A stretch of DNA of 64,000 nucleotides from Methyloceanibacter sp. (GTDB lineage Bacteria; Pseudomonadota; Alphaproteobacteria; Rhizobiales; Methyloligellaceae): NCBI GenBank assembly GCA_014380485.1, contig JACMJU010000111.1, positions 24,818-88,817 on the forward strand. The letters run 5' to 3'. The position numbers and the translations under genes were made by a program. The notes beneath the pieces are model-generated. The model was not told the DNA's origin. It saw nothing but the letters and a program-made list of their open reading frames with translations, and made no database searches. Positions 46,341 to 55,703 of the stretch are shown here, piece by piece (the stretch's first letter is position 1; each line of letters opens with the position of its first letter).

Positions 46341-47372
46341 TCACTTGGCCGGGCCGTCCATCACCACCATGCTCTTGTCGGTGCGTGTGTCGGGCGTCGC
46401 CGGCAGATCGGTCGTGACCAGAACCGTGCCGGGCTTCAGACGCTGCTTGGTGGCGTCCATCACCTGCTCCGAGCCCTCGATACGCTCGAGTACGGCGGAG
46501 TTCGGCGCGACCGCCCCCTCACCGTCGGGATGGAACCCCATCCCCGCCCAGCTCGAGCCGTTCTTGTCGCCGCCCTGCCAGATGAACACGTTGGAGCCGA
46601 TCGGCTTGGACGGGTCTTTGATATTCGCGTCTCCCTCGGCGACGATCGCGCCGCCTTGCAACACATAGATGCGATTGTCGGCACGCGACACCAGGATCGA
46701 GGTGACGGCATTGGCGCCGCCTGCCGCCTTCTTGCCGACTTTGGCGTCGATTTCCGCCTTAGCGCTCGAACCGAGAACGGGTCCGGGATCCTTCACCGCC
46801 TCAGGATCGGTATGGTCGCCGGCAATGATGACCGGCGTTCCGACATGCGTCGCCTCATAGAGGTCCTTGGCGAATTTGGGCGGAAGGCGCACGCAGCCGT
46901 GAGAGGCGGGATAGCCCGGCAACTTGCCCGCATGCAGCGCCACGCCCTGCCAGGTGAGCCGCTCCATAAACGGCATCGGCGCGTCATCGAACTCCTTCGA
47001 GTAATGCTCCTCGGCCTTCTCGAGAACGGTGAAGACGCCGGTCGGGGTCTCGAAGCCCTTCTTCCCGGTCGAACAGGTCGAGACGCCGATAAGAATCCCG
47101 TTGCGATAGACATAGACCCGCTGCTTCGGCACCGAGACGATGATGGCAACCGGCCCGCTCGGCGCGCGTTCGGGATGCCAGGTAAATCCGCCGGGCTTGA
47201 GGTTCTTGCCTTCCTCGGCGGGCGTAGCCGGGCCGCTGCTCCCCCTCCCCTTGGCTTTCCGCCGCGCGGCGCCTGCGGTGGCGAGGAAAAGGAGATTGCC
47301 TCCGCCCAGGACCGCTGCACCGACCAACAATTGCGCAACAACCGTCCGCCGGCTTAAACCTCGCCTTGGCAT
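46341..47372 (-). CDS. L,D-transpeptidase family protein, Tat-type leader
   Basis: SRRTVV, STGK...TPTG, ALHAG.LPGYPASHGCVRL. Confidence 0.92.
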   Translation of the reverse strand: MPRRGLSRRTVVAQLLVGAAVLGGGNLLFLATAGAARRKAKGRGSSGPATPAEEGKNLKPGGFTWHPERAPSGPVAIIVSVPKQRVYVYRNGILIGVSTCSTGKKGFETPTGVFTVLEKAEEHYSKEFDDAPMPFMERLTWQGVALHAGKLPGYPASHGCVRLPPKFAKDLYEATHVGTPVIIAGDHTDPEAVKDPGPVLGSSAKAEIDAKVGKKAAGGANAVTSILVSRADNRIYVLQGGAIVAEGDANIKDPSKPIGSNVFIWQGGDKNGSSWAGMGFHPDGEGAVAPNSAVLERIEGSEQVMDATKQRLKPGTVLVTTDLPATPDTRTDKSMVVMDGPAK

Positions 47373-47461
47373 GGCGATCCTCCTCGGGGCCGCGATTTTC
47401 GACCTCTAAGTCCGCGTCATTTCGAGCGCAAGCTGAAATTCATTGCGGTTAACCGGGCGTC

Positions 47462-48454
47462 TCATTTCCGCGGACTGTCCATTACCACGAGGTTGCCGCC
47501 GCTTCGCGTATCGGGCGTCGCCGGCAGGTCGGTGGTAATGAGCACCGTCCCCGGCTTGATCCGTGCCCGGACGGCGTCCATCACGCCGGGCGCGCCGTCG
47601 ATGCGTTGGAGCACGTCGGCGTTCGGGGTCGTAGCGAGGGCAGGATCGGCATGAAAGCCCATCGCCTCCCAGGCGGAACCCTTGGCGTCGCCGGCCCGCC
47701 AAACAAAGACGTTGGAGCCCAGCGGTTGGGATGGATTTGCGATGTTCGCCTCCCCCTCGGCGACGATATCCGCATTCTGGAGCACATAGATTTTCTTGTC
47801 GGCCCGCGAAACGAGAATCGAGGTGACCGCATCGGGGCTGGAGGGCGAGAACATCGCCTGCCCCACCTCAGACTCCATCTCCTCCTTGGCGGCCGTGCCG
47901 AGGATTGGTCCGGGATCGGCGACTGAAGCGGGATCGGTATGACCCCCGGCGATGATCACGGGCGTCCCGACTTGCGTGATTGCGTAGAGATCGTCGGCAA
48001 ACTCGCTCGGCAGGTGAACGCAGCCATGAGAGTCGGGATAGCCGGGGAGGTCGCCGACATGAAGCGCGATGCCCTTCCAGGTGAGCCGCTCCATGTCGGG
48101 CATGGGCTCACCATATTTGACCGAAGTATGGGTCTTGGCCTTCTCCAGAATCGTGAAAACCCCGGCGGGCGTCGAGTGACCCGGCTTGCCCGTCGAGCAG
48201 GTCGAAACGCCGATCAGAATCCCGTTGCGGTAAACGAACACACGTTGCTTCGGGATCGAGACGATGATCGCAACCGGCCCTTTGGGGGCGCGTTCGGGAT
48301 GCCAAGTGAACTGCCCCGGCTGAAGACTATCGATATCGTCGCCGGAACTCCCGCTGTCCTGGGCCAGCACCCGAGAGATGCAAAGGCCCATCCCCAGGCC
48401 CAACAGGGAGATGGCCGAGCGCCGGGTGAGCCACGCAGGCTCTCGATACGACAT
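47462..48454 (-). CDS. L,D-transpeptidase family protein, Tat-type leader (paralog)
   Basis: TRRSAI, STGK...TPAG, ALHVG.LPGYPDSHGCVHL; SD aggagg. Confidence 0.92.
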   Translation of the reverse strand: MSYREPAWLTRRSAISLLGLGMGLCISRVLAQDSGSSGDDIDSLQPGQFTWHPERAPKGPVAIIVSIPKQRVFVYRNGILIGVSTCSTGKPGHSTPAGVFTILEKAKTHTSVKYGEPMPDMERLTWKGIALHVGDLPGYPDSHGCVHLPSEFADDLYAITQVGTPVIIAGGHTDPASVADPGPILGTAAKEEMESEVGQAMFSPSSPDAVTSILVSRADKKIYVLQNADIVAEGEANIANPSQPLGSNVFVWRAGDAKGSAWEAMGFHADPALATTPNADVLQRIDGAPGVMDAVRARIKPGTVLITTDLPATPDTRSGGNLVVMDSPRK

Positions 48455-48561: not shown

Positions 48562-50868
48562 TTACAAACCGTGTTCGGTGCGTGGAGGCGGGCTATCGGC
48601 GCCAAGCGCCCTCACATAGACGATCTTGCCGTCGCCCGGCGCATAGAAATCGGGAAGCCGCGCGCTCTCGCGGAAGCCCATGCGGCGATAGAAGTCGCGC
48701 GTGTCGGCGTATCGATCCGACGAAGAGGTATCGGCATAGATGCGCTTGGCGCCCGCTTTGGCCGCGGCGGCCTCGGCGCGGGTATAGAGCTGAGCGCCAA
48801 GCCCCTTTTTCTGCTCCTCGGGCGAAACGGCGATCCAATAAAGCTCGAATGAGTCTTGCGTTCCCGCGATCGGACCGTAACAGGCAAAGGCGACGAGGCT
48901 GGCGCCGCGCTCGGCCAGCACAAAGTGATAGCCCGATCGGATTCCTTTGGTGAGGCGCTCGGTGACGAGATCGGCCGCCACCTCCACCTCGGCCGCGTTG
49001 AAGAAACCGGTGCTTGCCACGAGCGAACGCACGCGCCCGACATCGTCGGCCATCACGGCGCTGCGCCAGTCAAGCCCGTTGCGAGCGACGCCCCTTCCCG
49101 GAGCTGCGTCTCGGGCGAGCGCCGGCGCCACCTGCCGGGCAGAAGAGTGGCCGGCAACCAGGCCCGAGAAAAAATTCCGGGCGTTGGTGCCGAGCGTGCG
49201 CACGCGGTAGCCGCCCTCTTGCACCACGAGCGTCGGGTAGCCGTGTTCGCCGATCATCCGCCCGAGCTGATCGAAATCCTTGCCCCGATTGGACCACGTG
49301 CCGGTGGGATCGCCGCGTGCGGTGTCGAAGCCGAGCGAGACCACGAAATAGGCCGGCGCGAAGCGTCTGACCCGCCGCAAGCCCTCGGCCACGGCGTTGC
49401 GGTGCTGCTCAGGGGTGATGTGCTCGGAGAGCGGAATGTTGAGATTGAAGCCCGCTCCGGGGCCGATCCCCGTCTCGTCGCGGAAGCCCGTAAAGTAAGG
49501 ATAGGCGAAGCTCGGATGGGCGTGGATCGACACGGTAAGCACGTCGGAGCGATTGTAGAAGATCTCCTGCTGGCCGTTGCCGTGGTGATAGTCGATATCG
49601 AGCATCGCCACCTTGCCGTAGCGCGCGAGTAGGTTTGCCGCGATCGCCGCATTGTTGAAGTAGCAGAAGCCGCCGAAGCTACGCGTCTCGGCGTGGTGCC
49701 CCGGAGGCCGCACCAGGGCGTAAGCGAGGCCTGCGCCCTCCAGCACCTTCTCCGCCGCGGTGAGCGCGCAGTCCACCGCCGAGCGCGCGGCGAGATAGGC
49801 GTTCTGATTGAGCGGCGTGAAGGTGTCGATGCAGTAATAGCCGGCGAGAACCGTCTCGTCCTTCGGCGCCCGCGCCGGATTGCGCAGCGGGAACACGTAA
49901 GGGTAGATCGACTTCTTGGGGCCGGCGATCAGGCAGGCTTTGCGGACATAGTCGACCAGCCTGCCGTCGTGCACGGCGCGGATATGCCGGTCGGAGTAGC
50001 GCTTGGCCGGCACCTGCTGGATCAGTCCCGAAGGATCGAGCTCGGCCATGATCGAGCGGATACGGACCGGCGCCTCGACATAGTCCCGGTCAGGGACGTG
50101 ATGGAGCGTATGCTCGTCGTTGAGCACGAGCGCGATGCGCGGCTCCGAGGCCGCGCGCAGCTCTCCCTTCATCGCCCGGCGCGTCTTGATGTAGCGGGGC
50201 TCGCGCAAGCGGACGGGATCGTCTTTGATCGACTCGACCACCATCTGCACGTAATCCGGGGGGCAGTCATATTTGCGCTCGAGGATGGCGCGCACGACTT
50301 TGCGCGCTTTGTCCCGGCTCGGCAGGTCGCCCGCGCCGAGCGGATCGAGCACGAGATAAGGCGGATCGACCCCCCCCGGCACCACTGGTGTCGCGTAGGC
50401 GGTGTTGACGATCGGCCGGGCGCCGTAGCGTTCGTAGAATTTCAGCCGGGCGGCATTGGCGGTCCTGACTTCGGGATTGGGGCTGAGCGCGGGATCGTCA
50501 GGCAGGGATTCGAAGTAAAGCTGGGTGCCGAGCGCCCGCGCCTCCTCCCGCACGCGCCCGTAAAGCGCCGCCCCAATTCCCCCCCCCATGCGGCCTGGCG
50601 CCGTGGAGATGATCTCGAGATAGGAGAAGCCGATATCCGGCGCATGGAGCAGAAGCGCCACGCCGAGCGTCTGATCGCGCTCATTCTCGGCCACGAACAG
50701 GCGCGACACGAATTTGTGCTTCAGTGGATTGCCGAGCTGATCCGGAAGCTTGGCGATATCCCGCTCGGGGATCGCCGGGAATTGCTCGCGCATGATCTTT
50801 TGCGCCGCTTCGATGGCCGAGCGGTTTACCGCCGTCGTGGCGTCGGCCACCTTGCGGATGCGGAGCAT
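48562..50868 (-). CDS. GNAT - HDAC/acetylpolyamine amidohydrolase - GNAT fusion protein
   Basis: N-GNAT (RMGGGIG, FYERYG); RPPGHHA, GFCYFNN, DIDYHHGNG, GFD...DP, EGGY; C-GNAT (WIAV...QKKGLG, FYRRMGF). Confidence 0.92.
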   Translation of the reverse strand: MLRIRKVADATTAVNRSAIEAAQKIMREQFPAIPERDIAKLPDQLGNPLKHKFVSRLFVAENERDQTLGVALLLHAPDIGFSYLEIISTAPGRMGGGIGAALYGRVREEARALGTQLYFESLPDDPALSPNPEVRTANAARLKFYERYGARPIVNTAYATPVVPGGVDPPYLVLDPLGAGDLPSRDKARKVVRAILERKYDCPPDYVQMVVESIKDDPVRLREPRYIKTRRAMKGELRAASEPRIALVLNDEHTLHHVPDRDYVEAPVRIRSIMAELDPSGLIQQVPAKRYSDRHIRAVHDGRLVDYVRKACLIAGPKKSIYPYVFPLRNPARAPKDETVLAGYYCIDTFTPLNQNAYLAARSAVDCALTAAEKVLEGAGLAYALVRPPGHHAETRSFGGFCYFNNAAIAANLLARYGKVAMLDIDYHHGNGQQEIFYNRSDVLTVSIHAHPSFAYPYFTGFRDETGIGPGAGFNLNIPLSEHITPEQHRNAVAEGLRRVRRFAPAYFVVSLGFDTARGDPTGTWSNRGKDFDQLGRMIGEHGYPTLVVQEGGYRVRTLGTNARNFFSGLVAGHSSARQVAPALARDAAPGRGVARNGLDWRSAVMADDVGRVRSLVASTGFFNAAEVEVAADLVTERLTKGIRSGYHFVLAERGASLVAFACYGPIAGTQDSFELYWIAVSPEEQKKGLGAQLYTRAEAAAAKAGAKRIYADTSSSDRYADTRDFYRRMGFRESARLPDFYAPGDGKIVYVRALGADSPPPRTEHGL

Positions 50869-50887
50869 GGACTAGATGCGAAGCACG

Positions 50888-51874
50888 TCAGGCAGTGGCT
50901 TGCAAGCGCCCGAGCGAGGCCTGGATAACGCGCGCGATCATCGCGTCGTAGTCGATCCCGGCCTCGAGCGCCGAAGCCGCGAACCCGGCGTCCGCGCTGA
51001 GGCACGGGTTCATGTTGACTTCGAGGATAAAGGGCGCCCCGGTGCGATCGACGCGGAAATCGACGCGCGCATAACCATCGAGATTGAACAATTCCCAGCA
51101 CGCCAACGCCAGCCGCGTCAGTTCGGCGGCGAGCTCAGGCGCATCCTCCTCGACCCCGAAGCGGCGCGGCGTGCCGACATAGGGCTGGCTCCCGGGCGTC
51201 CACTTGGCGTCGTAGTCGGTAATAAGCGGCTCGCCCTCGCCGAATCCGTGGAACAGCGTTTCGCTGATCGGGAGCACCTCGACGCCGTCCGGCTGCTCGA
51301 TCATCGCAATGGCAAATTCCCTTCCATCGATATAACGCTCCGCGAAATGCTCGGTACGCCAGCGGAGCGTTCGTTCGACAATCGCGCGCGCGGCGCCGGC
51401 GCCGCGCGTCACCGAGGCCGGATCGATGCCAAGCGAGCCGTGTTCCCATACCGGCTTGACGATAACGTGCGCGTCCGGATCGAATCCCGTCCCGTCTTGC
51501 GACCAATCCGGTGTAGGCAGGCCGGCATGCGCGAGCTTGAGCTTGGTGCCGATCTTGGAGAGCGTGTCGAGCCAGGCGCTGGTCCTGGCGCCGGTATAGT
51601 GGAGTGCAAGTGCGTCGAGTCGGGCCGGCACCATCGCCGCGAGCCGGCAATCTCCTCCCACGGCATCGACCAGGTTGAAGACAAGGAGGGGGCGGCGTGC
51701 GGCCAGCGCCTCGAGGCCTCCGAGGTCGGGGGCAAGCCCGATGATCTCGGTGGCGTAGCCGAGCCGCGCGAGCGCGCCCGCCACCGATTGAGCGGCGACG
51801 ATCGTATCGATCTCGTCGGGACGGCTTTGCGTCGCCGCATGCAGAACCGGGATGAAACCTGCCGTTCCCGTCAT
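50888..51874 (-). CDS. Ddl-like ATP-grasp ligase B
   Basis: IVKPVWEHGSLGI, ERYIDGREF, DYDAKW, ARVDFR, LEVNMNP. Confidence 0.9.
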   Translation of the reverse strand: MTGTAGFIPVLHAATQSRPDEIDTIVAAQSVAGALARLGYATEIIGLAPDLGGLEALAARRPLLVFNLVDAVGGDCRLAAMVPARLDALALHYTGARTSAWLDTLSKIGTKLKLAHAGLPTPDWSQDGTGFDPDAHVIVKPVWEHGSLGIDPASVTRGAGAARAIVERTLRWRTEHFAERYIDGREFAIAMIEQPDGVEVLPISETLFHGFGEGEPLITDYDAKWTPGSQPYVGTPRRFGVEEDAPELAAELTRLALACWELFNLDGYARVDFRVDRTGAPFILEVNMNPCLSADAGFAASALEAGIDYDAMIARVIQASLGRLQATA

Positions 51875-52887
51875 CAGGCGCGTTTCCGCCCCGGCTCCAG
51901 CGTCCTCCGGCTAAGCCCGTAGCGGGCCAGGCCGGCGTCGAGAATGATGCCGATGAGAGTTGTGAACGCGACCCCGTTCTGGGCGGCCAGGATCGGCAGG
52001 TCGGAGTGCCAAGGATTGAGGCCGGCGAGCGGATTAGCCTCGAGGAAATACGGGTCGCCCTTCGCATCGGAACGGAAATCGATGCGCGCGGTGTCGCGGC
52101 ATTGCAGCGCGCGGTAAGCCGCAAGCGCGCGGGCGCCGGCAAGGCGCGCCTCGCCGTCGGCAGCCGGGGCGTAGGTCACGAGCTCCTCGCACAGCTCCTT
52201 GTTATGAAGCGAATAGACATTCGCCTCGGCATTGGGCTTCAGCAAAATCTCGCAGACGCCGAGCACACGGGCCTCCTCGCCGTTGCCGACGATGCCCACC
52301 GTGAACTCGCGGCCGGGAAGGTATTGCTCGACCAAAGCCGGCTGCCGGTAGCGCGCGATGACGCGGGCAACCGCGGCCTGAAGAGCGGCTTCCGAATGCA
52401 CCAGAGAGGCCGCCTCGCAGCCTTTGCCGGTGCCTTCGGCGAGCGGCTTCACGAAAGCGGGGAAATCGGTCCAGTCGACAAGCTCGTTCGCACTCCCCTC
52501 CGCGACCGCAAAAGAGGGCGTCGGCACGCCGGCGTCGCGCACCAGGCGCTTGGCCACGGCCTTGTCGAGAGCCGCCGCTAGCGTGAGCGGGTCGGAGAAG
52601 AGATAAGGCTGATCGAACAGCTCGCAGAGCGCCGGCACCTGCGCCTCCCGCGAGCGCCCGGTCACGCCTTCGGCGATGGAAAAGACGATGTCGTAGCGCT
52701 CGCCTGCGACCAGCCGGGCCGCGAGCGCCTGCCCGCGTCCCACCCGGATCGCCTCGCAACCGAGCGCTTCCAGCGCGCCCGCCAGCGCATCGATCGTCTC
52801 GATCGAGTCGAACTCGGCCACCTCGTCCTCGGAGAGGCCGAGCGCGCGATAGTCGTCGCGGAGGTCGTAAACGAGAGCGACGCGCAT
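51874..52887 (-). CDS. Ddl-like ATP-grasp ligase A
   Basis: DKAVAK, FVKPLAEGTGKG, EQYLPGREFTV, ARIDFR, FLEANPLAGL. Confidence 0.9.
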   Translation of the reverse strand: MRVALVYDLRDDYRALGLSEDEVAEFDSIETIDALAGALEALGCEAIRVGRGQALAARLVAGERYDIVFSIAEGVTGRSREAQVPALCELFDQPYLFSDPLTLAAALDKAVAKRLVRDAGVPTPSFAVAEGSANELVDWTDFPAFVKPLAEGTGKGCEAASLVHSEAALQAAVARVIARYRQPALVEQYLPGREFTVGIVGNGEEARVLGVCEILLKPNAEANVYSLHNKELCEELVTYAPAADGEARLAGARALAAYRALQCRDTARIDFRSDAKGDPYFLEANPLAGLNPWHSDLPILAAQNGVAFTTLIGIILDAGLARYGLSRRTLEPGRKRA

Positions 52888-54224
52888 CAGACTTGCCCGA
52901 CGCCGGGAACCCGGTCGCCGCCGACGGTCCCATCGGGGTCGGCGTAGCGGTAGATGTTGCCCTCGAAGTTCCTCAAAATGAGGTCGTCGCCCTCGCGGCC
53001 CACGACATAGTCCGGAAGGAGCGGAATCTTGCCGCCGCCGCCCGGCGCATCGATCACATAGGTCGGCACGGCATAGCCCGTGGTATGGCCGCGCAGGCCC
53101 TGGATGATCTCGAGCCCCTTATCGACGCTGGTGCGGAAATGGGCCGAGCCCGAGATCGGATCGCATTGATAGAGGTAATAAGGCCTGACCCGCCGCATCA
53201 GGAGGCTATGGAAGAGGCCTTTGAGCGTCTCGACCTCATCGTTGATGCCCTTGAGCAGCACGGTCTGGCTGCCGAGCGGAATACCCGCATCGGCAAGCCG
53301 TGCGGTCGCCTCGTTGACTTCGGGGGTCAACTCGGAGGGATGGGTGAAGTGGAGGCTCATCCATAACGGATGATGCTTCTTGAGCACGCGGATCAAGGCG
53401 CGCGTCACCCGCATCGGCAAGACCACCGGCACTTTGGTGCCAAGCCGGACGAATTCGACATGCTTGATGGCCCGGAGCCGCCCGAGCAGATAGTCGAGCC
53501 GCTCGTCGGAGAGCGTCAACGGATCGCCGCCGGAAATCAACACGTCGCGGATCTCGGGATGCGCCGCGATATACTCGAGCGCCTCCTCCCATTGCGGCCG
53601 GCTGAAAGTATAGTCGCCGCCGGCCTCGCCCACCATGCGCGAGCGCGTGCAGTAGCGGCAATAGGTCGAGCAGAACCCGGTGGCGAGGAACAAGACGCGG
53701 TCGGGGTAGCGGTGCACCAGCCCCGGTACCGCGGTATGGCCATCCTCGCCGAGAGGATCGTCGGCCTCACCCGGCGTCTTGAGATATTCGGCGCCGACCG
53801 GGATATGGGTACGGCGGAGCGGCTCGGTTGCATCCTCCCGCGCCATGAGGCTCGCATAATAGGGCGTGATGCCGAGCGGCAGCGACCCCTGATGGCGGAC
53901 CACGGCGTCGCGCTCGTCCTCCGACAGCACGAAAATGCGCTCAAGCTCGGCGAGCGTGCGGATGCGTGAACGGGTCTGCCAGCGCCAATCGTTCCATTGG
54001 GCGGCATCCACTTCGGGGTAGTAGCGCTTGCGAAACGCGCGGGAAAGCGGCCCGATGGGGAAGCGTTCCATGCGCACCACGACCGCATCGAGCCGCGGCG
54101 GCTTCCCGGGGGAAGCCGGCGCGGGCAAGAGGGCGTTGATCGGGGGATGGGGTTTGATGAGGAGTCGAGATGTCGCCGGCGGGCGACTGGGCGGCTCTTC
54201 GGCCTCAACCTTAAGCAACTTCAT
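52887..54224 (-). CDS. kamA: KamA family radical SAM aminomutase (lysine 2,3-aminomutase-like)
   Basis: HRYPDRVL, CSTYCRYC, SGGDPL, YQCD, VIDAPGGGGKIP (PLP lysine); SD ggagggg before ATG 54224. Confidence 0.92.
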   Translation of the reverse strand: MKLLKVEAEEPPSRPPATSRLLIKPHPPINALLPAPASPGKPPRLDAVVVRMERFPIGPLSRAFRKRYYPEVDAAQWNDWRWQTRSRIRTLAELERIFVLSEDERDAVVRHQGSLPLGITPYYASLMAREDATEPLRRTHIPVGAEYLKTPGEADDPLGEDGHTAVPGLVHRYPDRVLFLATGFCSTYCRYCTRSRMVGEAGGDYTFSRPQWEEALEYIAAHPEIRDVLISGGDPLTLSDERLDYLLGRLRAIKHVEFVRLGTKVPVVLPMRVTRALIRVLKKHHPLWMSLHFTHPSELTPEVNEATARLADAGIPLGSQTVLLKGINDEVETLKGLFHSLLMRRVRPYYLYQCDPISGSAHFRTSVDKGLEIIQGLRGHTTGYAVPTYVIDAPGGGGKIPLLPDYVVGREGDDLILRNFEGNIYRYADPDGTVGGDRVPGVGQV

Positions 54225-54404
54225 GAGATCGGTGTCCCCTCCGGGCGCTCGACGGATCGGCCTTGGCGCCAACCGCCTGCTCTGGGTCCGTCAAAAGCGC
54301 GAGTCATTTCAGCGACCTCGCACTGGATTTCAAGTCATAAGTGGTCAAGCCCCCAATTTTTTTTGGAACGCATCCCGCAGGGAGACGCAAGCGCGATGCG
54401 ACCG

Positions 54405-55703
54405 TCAGCCCGAATGCTGCACCACGGCGACGAAGAAGCCATCGGTGCCGTGATCGCGCGGCGTCATCAGGAGCGTCTCGGCAGAGCCGTCCGCGGACGG
54501 CACCGGCGGATGCCCCGCCAGCGCCCGCTCCCAGAGTTCCGGCCAGGATACGAGCTTAAATTCGGGATGGCGGGCGAGAAAGAAGTCCACCTGATCGCGG
54601 TTCTCCGACGGCAAGACGGAGCAGGTGATATAGGCGAGACGGCCGCCGGGCTTGACGAGCCCGGCACCCTCGTCGAGCACGGCCCTCTGCTCGGCGAGGC
54701 GCGCCTCGAGCATCCCTGGCGAGAGGCGCCATTTGGCGTCGGGGCGACGCCGCCACACGCCCGAGCCGGTGCAGGGCGCGTCGATGAGCACGAGATCCAT
54801 TTTGCCGGCGAGCTTCGCCAAGGCCTCGCGTTCGCCCGGCGGCAGCACCTGGACGTTCCGCACCCCCGCCCGCTTCAGCCGCTCGAAGATCGGCCTGAGG
54901 CGCAAGGTATCGGCATCGTAAGCATAGAGCTGACCGGTATTCTCCATCAGCGCCGCCAAGCCCAGGGTCTTGCCGCCGGCCCCGGCGCAAAGATCGATGA
55001 CCTGTTGGCGCGGGCCCGCACCAGAAAGAAGCGTGGCGAGCTGCGAGCCCTCGTCCTGCACTTCGTACCAGCCTTTGCCGTGACCCGGCTCGGCCTCGAG
55101 ATGGGGAGTGCGGCCCGGGCCTTCGGCCGGCGCGATGCGGACACCGACCGGAGAGTGCGGCGTAGGCGTTGGCTCGAAGCGGCGCAGCGCCTTCAGCACC
55201 TTGTCGCGATCGGCCTTCAGCGTGTTCACCCTGAGATCGATGGGAGCGCGCCGCGCCAGCGCCGCTCCCTGTTCGGCCGCCCTTGCACCGAAAGCCCGCT
55301 CGAATTCAGGCCCGAGCCAATCGGGATAGTCTCCCTTCACGGGAGCGGGGGTATCGGGGGGAAGCTCACGCCTGAGCCCCGCCAGCTCCGCCTCGGAGAG
55401 CGGCTCGAGCGCATGGCGGCTGCCATCGGCAAGGGCGGCCGCCTCCTCCGGCGCGAGCCGCCAGTGGGTCACGAGGGTGCGCAGCACGAGCGCACGCGGG
55501 CTGGTCGCGCCCATGGCGAAGGCCGCCGACGCGCGGGCGCGCAAAGAGTCGAAGACGAGATTTCCGATCGCCGCCCGGTCGCTCGACCCGGCGAAGCGAT
55601 GGGACAGCCCCCAATCCTTCAACGCCTCGGCGGCGGGGCGCTTGCGCGCGTCGATATCGGTCAGCACCTCGACGGCAGCCGCCGCGCGCGCTCCTGGCGT
55701 CAT
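54405..55703 (-). CDS. RsmB/NOP family RNA m5C methyltransferase
   Basis: VQDEGSQ, DLCAGAGGKT, DAPCTGSG, YITCS, DGFF. Confidence 0.94.
   Translation of the reverse strand: MTPGARAAAAVEVLTDIDARKRPAAEALKDWGLSHRFAGSSDRAAIGNLVFDSLRARASAAFAMGATSPRALVLRTLVTHWRLAPEEAAALADGSRHALEPLSEAELAGLRRELPPDTPAPVKGDYPDWLGPEFERAFGARAAEQGAALARRAPIDLRVNTLKADRDKVLKALRRFEPTPTPHSPVGVRIAPAEGPGRTPHLEAEPGHGKGWYEVQDEGSQLATLLSGAGPRQQVIDLCAGAGGKTLGLAALMENTGQLYAYDADTLRLRPIFERLKRAGVRNVQVLPPGEREALAKLAGKMDLVLIDAPCTGSGVWRRRPDAKWRLSPGMLEARLAEQRAVLDEGAGLVKPGGRLAYITCSVLPSENRDQVDFFLARHPEFKLVSWPELWERALAGHPPVPSADGSAETLLMTPRDHGTDGFFVAVVQHSG

Follow-up and report, generated by a model that had tools for sequence, protein, structure and literature searches.

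Closest described systems and the locus

Described systems that resemble a four-gene operon from Methyloceanibacter sp. include: (i) the AblA/AblB system of methanogens, in which a lysine 2,3-aminomutase (KamA) and an acetyltransferase make N-epsilon-acetyl-beta-lysine, an acetylated dipeptide osmolyte also being known (both according to the accessible part of PMC1224877), (ii) the EpmA/EpmB system of elongation factor P (EF-P), in which a KamA-family enzyme supplies beta-lysine for amide formation, (iii) the Ddl/Van ligases, (iv) the acetylpolyamine amidohydrolases (ApaH, cluster 4 of PMC11532494), a group that deacetylates acetylputrescine and acetylcadaverine as reported in the accessible text of that source, and (v) the attenuator of mgtL-mgtA. 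The operon lies on contig JACMJU010000111.1 of assembly GCA_014380485.1 (positions 24,818 to 88,817 of the forward strand), a stretch of 64,000 nucleotides termed the window, and consists of kamA, two ligase genes (ligA and ligB) and a gene that fuses two GNAT domains (GNAT1 and GNAT2) to a central deacetylase. It is a real and widespread pathway of known enzyme families, with a predicted product and a putative regulatory signal inside its first gene. A full-text search found no description of the kamA-ligA-ligB-GNAT2 cassette or its product, most subscription journals being outside its scope.

The operon shares features with each of these systems and departs from all of them. Like AblA/AblB (accessible part of PMC1224877), it combines a GNAT with a lysine 2,3-aminomutase within a single operon; neither GNAT matches AblB, however, and the two ligases and the deacetylase are extra. 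LigA and LigB have the fold and all ATP/Mg-binding residues of the Ddl/Van ligases, yet they score far under the family cut-offs, have the His, Tyr and Leu of the pocket replaced, and occur as two paralogues, often fused, in addition to a separate housekeeping ddl. The ApaH enzymes are the best structural-database matches of the deacetylase, which keeps the catalytic set and aligns over the L2 region, whereas it is fused behind an uncharacterised GNAT, carries PTG instead of PIS, has an L1 region that looks short, and has a putative substrate. Unlike the EpmA/EpmB system, the operon encodes ATP-grasp rather than tRNA-synthetase-like ligases, is not beside efp and has an aminomutase that scores lower against the EpmB model than against the KamA model. 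As at mgtL-mgtA, acidic residues and Pro fall within the first 20 codons near a rut-like tract; by contrast, the motif of kamA is in frame inside an enzyme gene, and its tract lies just downstream, so that a stall would expose the tract and not hide it.

In the proposed pathway, which is held at even confidence, lysine would be converted to beta-lysine, built through two amide bonds into an acetylated cytoplasmic polycation, and a leader in kamA would shut off transcription. KamA would form beta-lysine from L-lysine, predicted to be the (S) form because the enzyme is closer to clostridial KamA than to EpmB. LigA would activate beta-lysine via two acidic anchors, Glu25 and Glu73; the acceptor would be a basic amino acid, for instance lysine or another beta-lysine (Ser295, presumed to bind its carboxylate, and Asp296). 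LigB would add a further unit to a bulkier or carboxylate-less acceptor, such as the dipeptide or a polyamine (Ala/Ser-Gly), and the two ligases probably work as one two-site enzyme. GNAT2 would N-acetylate an intermediate or the product and, where present, the GNAT1-deacetylase unit would toggle the product between charged and neutral forms. A small beta-lysyl amide of some kind is a likely product; that it is a polyamine-like polycation as described has close to, though not above, an even chance.

Conservation and gene order

Gene anatomy, conservation, residue patterns and the sequence features of the leader are direct observations. The four genes almost certainly form a real functional unit, and their order is kept far beyond chance. 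Among 80 close ligA loci, ligB is the next gene in all 80, kamA precedes ligA in 78 (the other two loci are contig starts) and GNAT2 follows in 75. The GNAT1-deacetylase unit comes after the ligases in 67 of the 80, while 9 of the 75 loci that reach GNAT2 pass to it directly from ligB. Elsewhere in the genus, ligA is found in 17 of 24 other genomes, and three near-complete genomes have neither ligA nor kamA. In a draw of 400 Pseudomonadota genomes ligA occurs in 14 (six with kamA-ligA-ligB, eight of one genus with no ligB nearby), and 400 genomes of another class give 16 matches, 14 of them with kamA, ligA, ligB and GNAT2 and 4 adding the GNAT1-deacetylase. About 3-4% of sampled Pseudomonadota genomes carry the cassette or part of it.

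A metagenome scan was seeded with a GNAT1-deacetylase copy from a genome that lacks the cassette, to avoid bias. At least one core gene accompanies 48 of the 80 GNAT1-deacetylase loci recovered; 19 of the 30 loci with 4.5 kb of upstream DNA have core genes (all four in 18) and 11 have none. The GNAT1-deacetylase unit is therefore linked to the core in distant lineages yet able to stand alone, and is optional. GNAT1 is followed by the deacetylase in 73 of the 80 loci. A single frame encodes the triple fusion at 58 of 80 close loci and at one of 16 from the other class; the metagenome set shows no case. The genes kamA-ligA-ligB-GNAT2 form the conserved core, and the GNAT-deacetylase-GNAT fusion is a local arrangement. 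The co-conservation suggested by the original prediction is borne out by neighbourhoods kept across distant lineages, but the unit is not the triple fusion of that prediction, since the GNAT1-deacetylase is missing from some close loci, stands as its own gene in a distant lineage and can be found free of the cassette.

Natural fusion proteins follow the order of the proposed steps, which favours an operon pathway. The 120 long LigA homologues comprise 50 LigA-LigB, one LigA-LigB-GNAT2, one KamA-LigA and 68 proteins with another double ligase; LigB-GNAT2 fusions also occur, with six more frames of that kind besides, and divergent KamA-ligase fusions exist. Source names of LigA homologues include Spirochaetota, Myxococcales and Gammaproteobacteria; none of the loci seen is archaeal. 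Clustering at 50% leaves 751 representatives with a LigA match of E 1e-30 or lower. The KamA-LigA frames of two long-read genomes (L049 and L066) and the LigA-LigB protein P0122 look like frameshift errors and are left out of the evidence. The 68 other double ligases (within P0158-P0240, some named Myxococcales) are a second kind of fusion, the halves of which form their own clades next to LigA. Protein P0374 carries a Cys-rich domain, about 175 residues long, ahead of its LigA part. A plasmid search returned only two unrelated matches of 38%, and viral contigs contain eight distant ligases, two of them beside kamA.

In one genus of eight genomes (L111-L118), kamA-ligA occurs without ligB or GNAT2. 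The pair stands alone in 7 of the 8 genomes, and no ligB is found in the five genomes tested (5/5). LigA is tied to beta-lysine by this occurrence of kamA-ligA alone. The LigA proteins of this genus have Gly where Asp stands at the acceptor site, and their kamA genes are without the Pro-Pro extension; the arrangement suggests a simpler product made with one ligase. Small open reading frames (ORFs) behind ligA in this genus are not conserved genes. A distant metagenome lineage (L144-L198) has kamA-ligA-ligB-GNAT2 followed by a separate GNAT1-deacetylase gene; a small helix-turn-helix gene recurs at 17 of its loci and a gene for a MarC-family transporter at 10, the EEPP motif of kamA is often doubled, and LigB is without its N-terminal Glu. 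One genome (G217, locus L127) has a lone GNAT1-deacetylase gene, no ligA match and only an EpmB-like aminomutase.

KamA and the two ligases

KamA aligns with PDB 2A5H (E 4e-132) and carries a 60-residue N-terminal extension. Residues C185, C189 and C192 (CxxxCxxC), R194, D355, D392 and K399 align with those of 2A5H and are kept in 107-108 of 108 homologues; the cysteines are taken to hold the cluster, R194 to bind the carboxylate, D355 and D392 to bind the side chain, and K399 to bind pyridoxal 5'-phosphate (PLP). TIGR03820 is the best of six KamA-type models, at 479 bits (below its equivalog cut-off of 525.4), against the models for glutamate aminomutase (413), arginine aminomutase (389) and EpmB (253). 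KamA is predicted to be a lysine 2,3-aminomutase with the lysine-type active site kept, in agreement with the KamA-type enzyme first proposed. It is the only KamA-family gene of the source genome, a Methyloceanibacter-like one from soil that is 86% complete, a scope that applies to all absences from this genome. The original prediction noted that efp, epmA and kamDE are not in the window; in the genome, epmA has no match over the cut-off, ablB (TIGR03827) has no match in a search with a working control, and efp is on another contig than the operon. A kamD search gave no match, and its control likewise matched nothing.

These ligases carry D-Ala-D-Ala ligase annotations. Against the Ddl family LigA and LigB score 135 and 98 bits, under the cut-off of 243, and they share 28% identity with one another. 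Both retain the ATP-grasp fold and every ATP/Mg residue (invariant among the LigA homologues); because all of these residues are kept, neither ligase looks dead. The pockets were compared with the Ddl of the same genome, and the positions concerned (the first-pocket His, the omega-loop Tyr and the acceptor Ser-Leu) are presumed to line the D-Ala pockets. At the His position, LigA has Glu73 in all 121 rows (including one LigB that was misassigned); LigB has Asp/Glu70 in 113 of 113. The omega-loop Tyr is replaced by Glu/Arg in LigA and by Trp225 in LigB (113 of 113). At the acceptor site, LigA keeps Ser295 and has Asp296 in 112 of 121 rows where Ddl has Leu, and LigB has Ala/Ser followed by Gly297, with Gly in 112 of 113. 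The change of His to Asp/Glu in both ligases fits a donor with an amine in its side chain. In a quick tree rooted on a single Ddl, the LigA and LigB types form separate clades. A predicted model of a natural LigA-LigB fusion has good domains and a predicted template modelling score of 0.56, uninformative on packing, and a predicted complex of GNAT2, LigA and LigB scored 0.00 and gives no verdict.

The Ddl fold of both ligases, together with two L,D-transpeptidase-family genes that come next on the same strand in the window, raises the alternative of a peptidoglycan building block, which the original prediction had listed among its options. This is very improbable. The true ddl lies between murB and ftsQ in a murC-murB-ddl-ftsQ-ftsA-ftsZ run apart from the operon, the D-Ala pocket residues are changed in both ligases, and transpeptidase genes turn up next to the cassette at only 15 of 80 close loci and nowhere in the distant sets. 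The family scores and the ddl of the mur-fts cluster likewise counter the possibility that the ligases make D-Ala-D-Ala alone. A beta-lysyl amide remains the favoured product of the ligase pair, the identification of which would define two new amide-ligase specificities, useful for coupling beta-amino acids.

Acetyltransferase and deacetylase domains

GNAT1 is weak by sequence; its predicted fold is confidently that of a GNAT (predicted local distance difference test score 94), with PDB 3EY5 as the best structural match (Z 16.0, root-mean-square deviation 3.2, 174 residues aligned), and it belongs to an uncharacterised GNAT family. The profile of GNAT2 matches PDB 2R7H (E 3e-56), and then RimI and N-alpha-acetyltransferases (E 5e-9 to 1e-5). 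The 2R7H protein, Dde_3044 of Desulfovibrio, is a direct homologue of GNAT2, and its chain name, 'putative D-alanine N-acetyltransferase', suggests that the depositors saw a Ddl-like neighbour. No function for it was found in the literature searched; identifying the product of the operon would give this structural-genomics protein a function and define a new beta-lysine metabolite. A report on Dde_3047 (accessible part of PMC8836040) concerns a phosphatase and is irrelevant.

The deacetylase domain is catalytically intact and closest to the acetylpolyamine amidohydrolases, in which long L1 and L2 loops make up the dimer lid. Its best five PDB matches are all of this group (E 2e-66 to 1e-59), and the His-His dyad, Zn ligands and catalytic Tyr are kept in at least 119 of 123 homologues. 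The reversible acylation first proposed is an accessory layer, because the GNAT1-deacetylase is optional, separable and also found free of the cassette.

The acetyltransferase domains prompt comparison with compatible solutes. In one alternative, the product is a neutral or zwitterionic solute, an acetylated beta-lysine dipeptide or amide that extends the AblA/AblB theme, for which N-epsilon-acetyl-beta-lysine, as well as the acetylated dipeptide osmolyte (accessible part of PMC1224877), is a precedent. Of 93 loci examined, 10 have a gene for a MarC-family transporter, and no ectoine synthase is found in 25 genomes of the genus. However, ectC and the homospermidine/carboxyspermidine-type dehydrogenases are absent from all 25, with or without the operon, which makes the trade-off test uninformative; the three near-complete genomes without the operon are also without ectC, so no trade-off is seen. 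GNAT2 is not AblB, as the fusion has no match to TIGR03827 at E 0.01 and an AblB-family match is absent from the genome as well, and a polyamine-type deacetylase and a stall leader are foreign to an abl operon. A solute of this kind is unlikely.

Acetylation has a second possible role, in defence. Streptothricins contain beta-lysine chains and are inactivated by acetylation, and an antibiotic-like beta-lysyl compound could be made by the operon with acetylation protecting the producer. Occurrence is patchy, at 14 of 400 and 16 of 400 genomes, and streptothricin-type acetyltransferases are matched very weakly (E 0.006 and E 0.6); these matches, however, are at the general level of GNATs. Exporter, scaffold and tailoring genes are not conserved around the core, and genomes as small as 1.7-2.1 Mb carry the operon. 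A defence compound is improbable.

The leader of kamA

Near its 5' end, kamA has an acidic Pro-Pro motif followed by a C-rich tract; the two are predicted to act together. The original prediction mentioned neither this leader nor the promoter-like element upstream of it. The leader is marginally favoured as a translation-coupled, Rho-dependent attenuator, in which stalling or drop-off of ribosomes at EEPP would bare the downstream tract to Rho and switch the operon off; the signal would most simply be feedback from the cationic product. Stalling of ribosomes by polyamines at a Pro-Pro motif (accessible part of PMC8705083) is one precedent. Another, according to the accessible portions of PMC11282234 and PMC12856214, is that motifs of acidic residues and Pro among the first 30 codons make ribosomes unstable and regulate Rho termination at mgtL. 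The kamA leader has the corresponding sequence features: an early acidic/Pro motif, a C-rich, G-poor and weakly folded tract, and a rho gene in the genome (split across two contig ends). Such a leader, if real, would place attenuation within the coding region of an enzyme gene.

The acidic Pro-Pro motif is the only fixed feature of the variable N-terminal extension. [ED]EPP is present in 61 of 66 close kamA genes and 23 of 24 metagenome genes; other alphaproteobacterial genes have [ED]EPP in 3 of 6 and EPP in 6 of 6. Of the 13 kamA genes in the phylum draw, one has [ED]EPP and five more DKPP; none of seven kamA-ligA-only genes has the motif. The loci in the leader counts include kin and are not independent. 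In the source genome, only 2 of 1051 long ORFs have the motif within the first 80 residues. The rare codons CCA or CCT encode the first Pro in 43 of 63 close genes, against a share of 11% over the gene body; among 38 distant motifs, 34 use CCT. An independent set of 14 kamA genes, fetched after motif and tract had been defined, has EPP in every gene (where there is an in-frame ATG, in 11 genes, it falls at codons 7-18), with CCT as first Pro codon in 11. The motif is absent from both loci in which kamA is not the first gene (L174 and L224). The codon bias at the first Pro and this loss point to a translational role. Protein P0381, a LigA homologue with an N-terminal extension that bears an acidic EPPS motif, hints that the motif goes with the first gene of an operon.

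The 60-nt tract has 33 C and 8 G, a skew that 1 of the 1051 long ORFs reaches at the same offset. Ranked among the windows of its own kamA gene, it comes within the top 5% for 62 of 63 close genes and 5 of 6 phylum-draw genes. In the independent set the tract is in the top 5% for skew in 12 of 14 genes and in the weakest-folding 5% in 6, with synonymous G at 18% versus 38%. A 6-bp hairpin directly behind the Pro-Pro codons is paired in 99% of cells over 34 sequences, with 2 of its 6 pairs changed on both sides. Frameshifting at this hairpin was rejected, as no slippery heptamer is visible.

The same motif admits a different explanation, in which the ligases put beta-lysyl units on a macromolecule (EF-P or a ribosomal protein) and Pro-Pro reads EF-P activity, or the EEPP peptide is itself a substrate or docking site. 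Pro-Pro motifs depend on EF-P (accessible part of PMC12856214), the genome has efp but yields no epmA above the cut-off, GNAT2 is similar to protein N-terminal acetyltransferases, and the motif is conserved as a peptide and doubled in one lineage. Yet neither efp nor another candidate target recurs beside the operon; with weak EF-P, a stall ahead of a Rho site would shut the operon down, which is the wrong sign; codon bias and the loss of the motif where kamA is not first point to translation; and the ligases are Ddl-folded, known Ddl substrates being small. This explanation is quite improbable.

Standing of the proposed pathway

Several points weigh against the pathway and its leader. Every substrate and product, the order of the steps and the action of the leader are predictions read from sequence. 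KamA falls under the equivalog cut-off, and the ligase pocket assignments rest on sequence alignment and on presumed roles of Ddl residues. The substrate of the deacetylase may differ from that of ApaH, because PTG stands where PsApaH has PIS and the L1 region looks short. The operon does not replace polyamine synthesis, as the source genome already has the spermidine route (speD-speE). For the leader, the 6-bp hairpin is limited to the genus and not enriched in more distant groups. The skew of the tract is in the top 5% in only 1 of 22 distant metagenome genes and 2 of 6 other alphaproteobacterial genes. A Pro/Ser-rich linker could explain part of the skew, because synonymous C in the tract of close loci is lower than in the gene body (39% versus 50%), not higher. 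In addition, the LigB acceptor may come from outside the operon, and the pathway is thus unproven as the self-contained one of the original prediction.

A bolder joint reading, which is doubtful, would define a new polyamine-like class: an oligo-beta-lysyl amide made by a two-site pair of Ddl-type ligases, stored in acetylated form and sensed by the ribosome at Glu-Pro-Pro, with handover to Rho. By analogy, such sensing would be the bacterial counterpart of eukaryotic polyamine sensing at Pro-Pro motifs, where polyamines stall ribosomes by competing with eIF5A (accessible part of PMC8705083).

Operon anatomy and surroundings

The four co-oriented genes, the two TGATG stop-start overlaps at 52887 (kamA/ligA) and 51874 (ligA/ligB) and the 19-nt gap between ligB and the fusion gene are as originally described, on the ORF coordinates. 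Pfam domains are LAM_C and radical SAM (S-adenosylmethionine) for kamA, Dala_Dala_lig_C for both ligases, and Hist_deacetyl and GNAT for the fusion. Coordinates are listed in Table 1.

Table 1. Features of the operon and its surroundings, in positions of the window.
Feature	Coordinates	Strand	Description
RsmB/Sun-family methyltransferase gene	54405-55700	minus	Upstream neighbour
Promoter-like element	54306..54334	minus	CTTGAAA, 16 nt, TGAAAT; about 80 nt upstream of kamA start
Small hairpin	54265-54277	minus	5' untranslated region of kamA
kamA	54224-52887	minus	445 aa from ATG, ORF intact; lysine 2,3-aminomutase-type radical SAM/PLP enzyme (predicted)
Acidic Pro-Pro motif EEPPS	54186..54200	minus	kamA codons 9-13; predicted ribosome stall or destabilisation signal
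6-bp mRNA hairpin	54172..54187	minus	Directly behind Pro-Pro codons
C-rich, G-poor, weakly folded 60-nt tract	54108..54167	minus	Inside kamA; predicted Rho-loading (rut-like) site
ligA	52887-51874	minus	337 aa, ORF intact; Ddl-fold ATP-grasp ligase with acidic donor and acceptor pockets (predicted)
ligB	51874-50888	minus	328 aa, ORF intact; second Ddl-fold ATP-grasp ligase with opened acceptor site (predicted)
GNAT-deacetylase-GNAT fusion gene	50868-48562	minus	768 aa, ORF intact
GNAT1 domain of fusion	50185..50868	minus	Accessory; uncharacterised GNAT family (predicted)
Zn-dependent deacetylase domain of fusion	49153..50136	minus	Accessory; acetylpolyamine amidohydrolase-like
GNAT2 domain of fusion	48613..49080	minus	Core acetyltransferase; RimI/N-terminal-acetyltransferase-like
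Two tandem YkuD L,D-transpeptidase-family genes	46341-48454	minus	Tat-like starts; 107 nt past fusion

The promoter-like pair of boxes is found in 60 of the 68 loci with enough upstream DNA, and a strict sigma-70 scan gave no site. In one study, RNA-library contigs of three runs stop without a loose end at 54290, 54286 and 54286, 16-20 nt behind the boxes, and a run of unrecorded library type reads through; these ends are a weak hint at a promoter. The runs are available as assembled contigs only, which show neither levels nor ends and the depth of which cannot rank the parts of the operon. Those of a second study extend over both the promoter and the gene upstream, a pattern like that of DNA, and are left out. 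No excess of terminators was found at the operon, and an Rfam scan of the window and of five distant loci returned no meaningful match. The small hairpin upstream of the kamA start has no Rfam match and is paired in 96% of cells over 34 sequences, with one pair changed on both sides. In 60 of the 80 close loci, the neighbour upstream of the cassette is the RsmB/Sun-family methyltransferase gene, which marks the insertion site in this genus.

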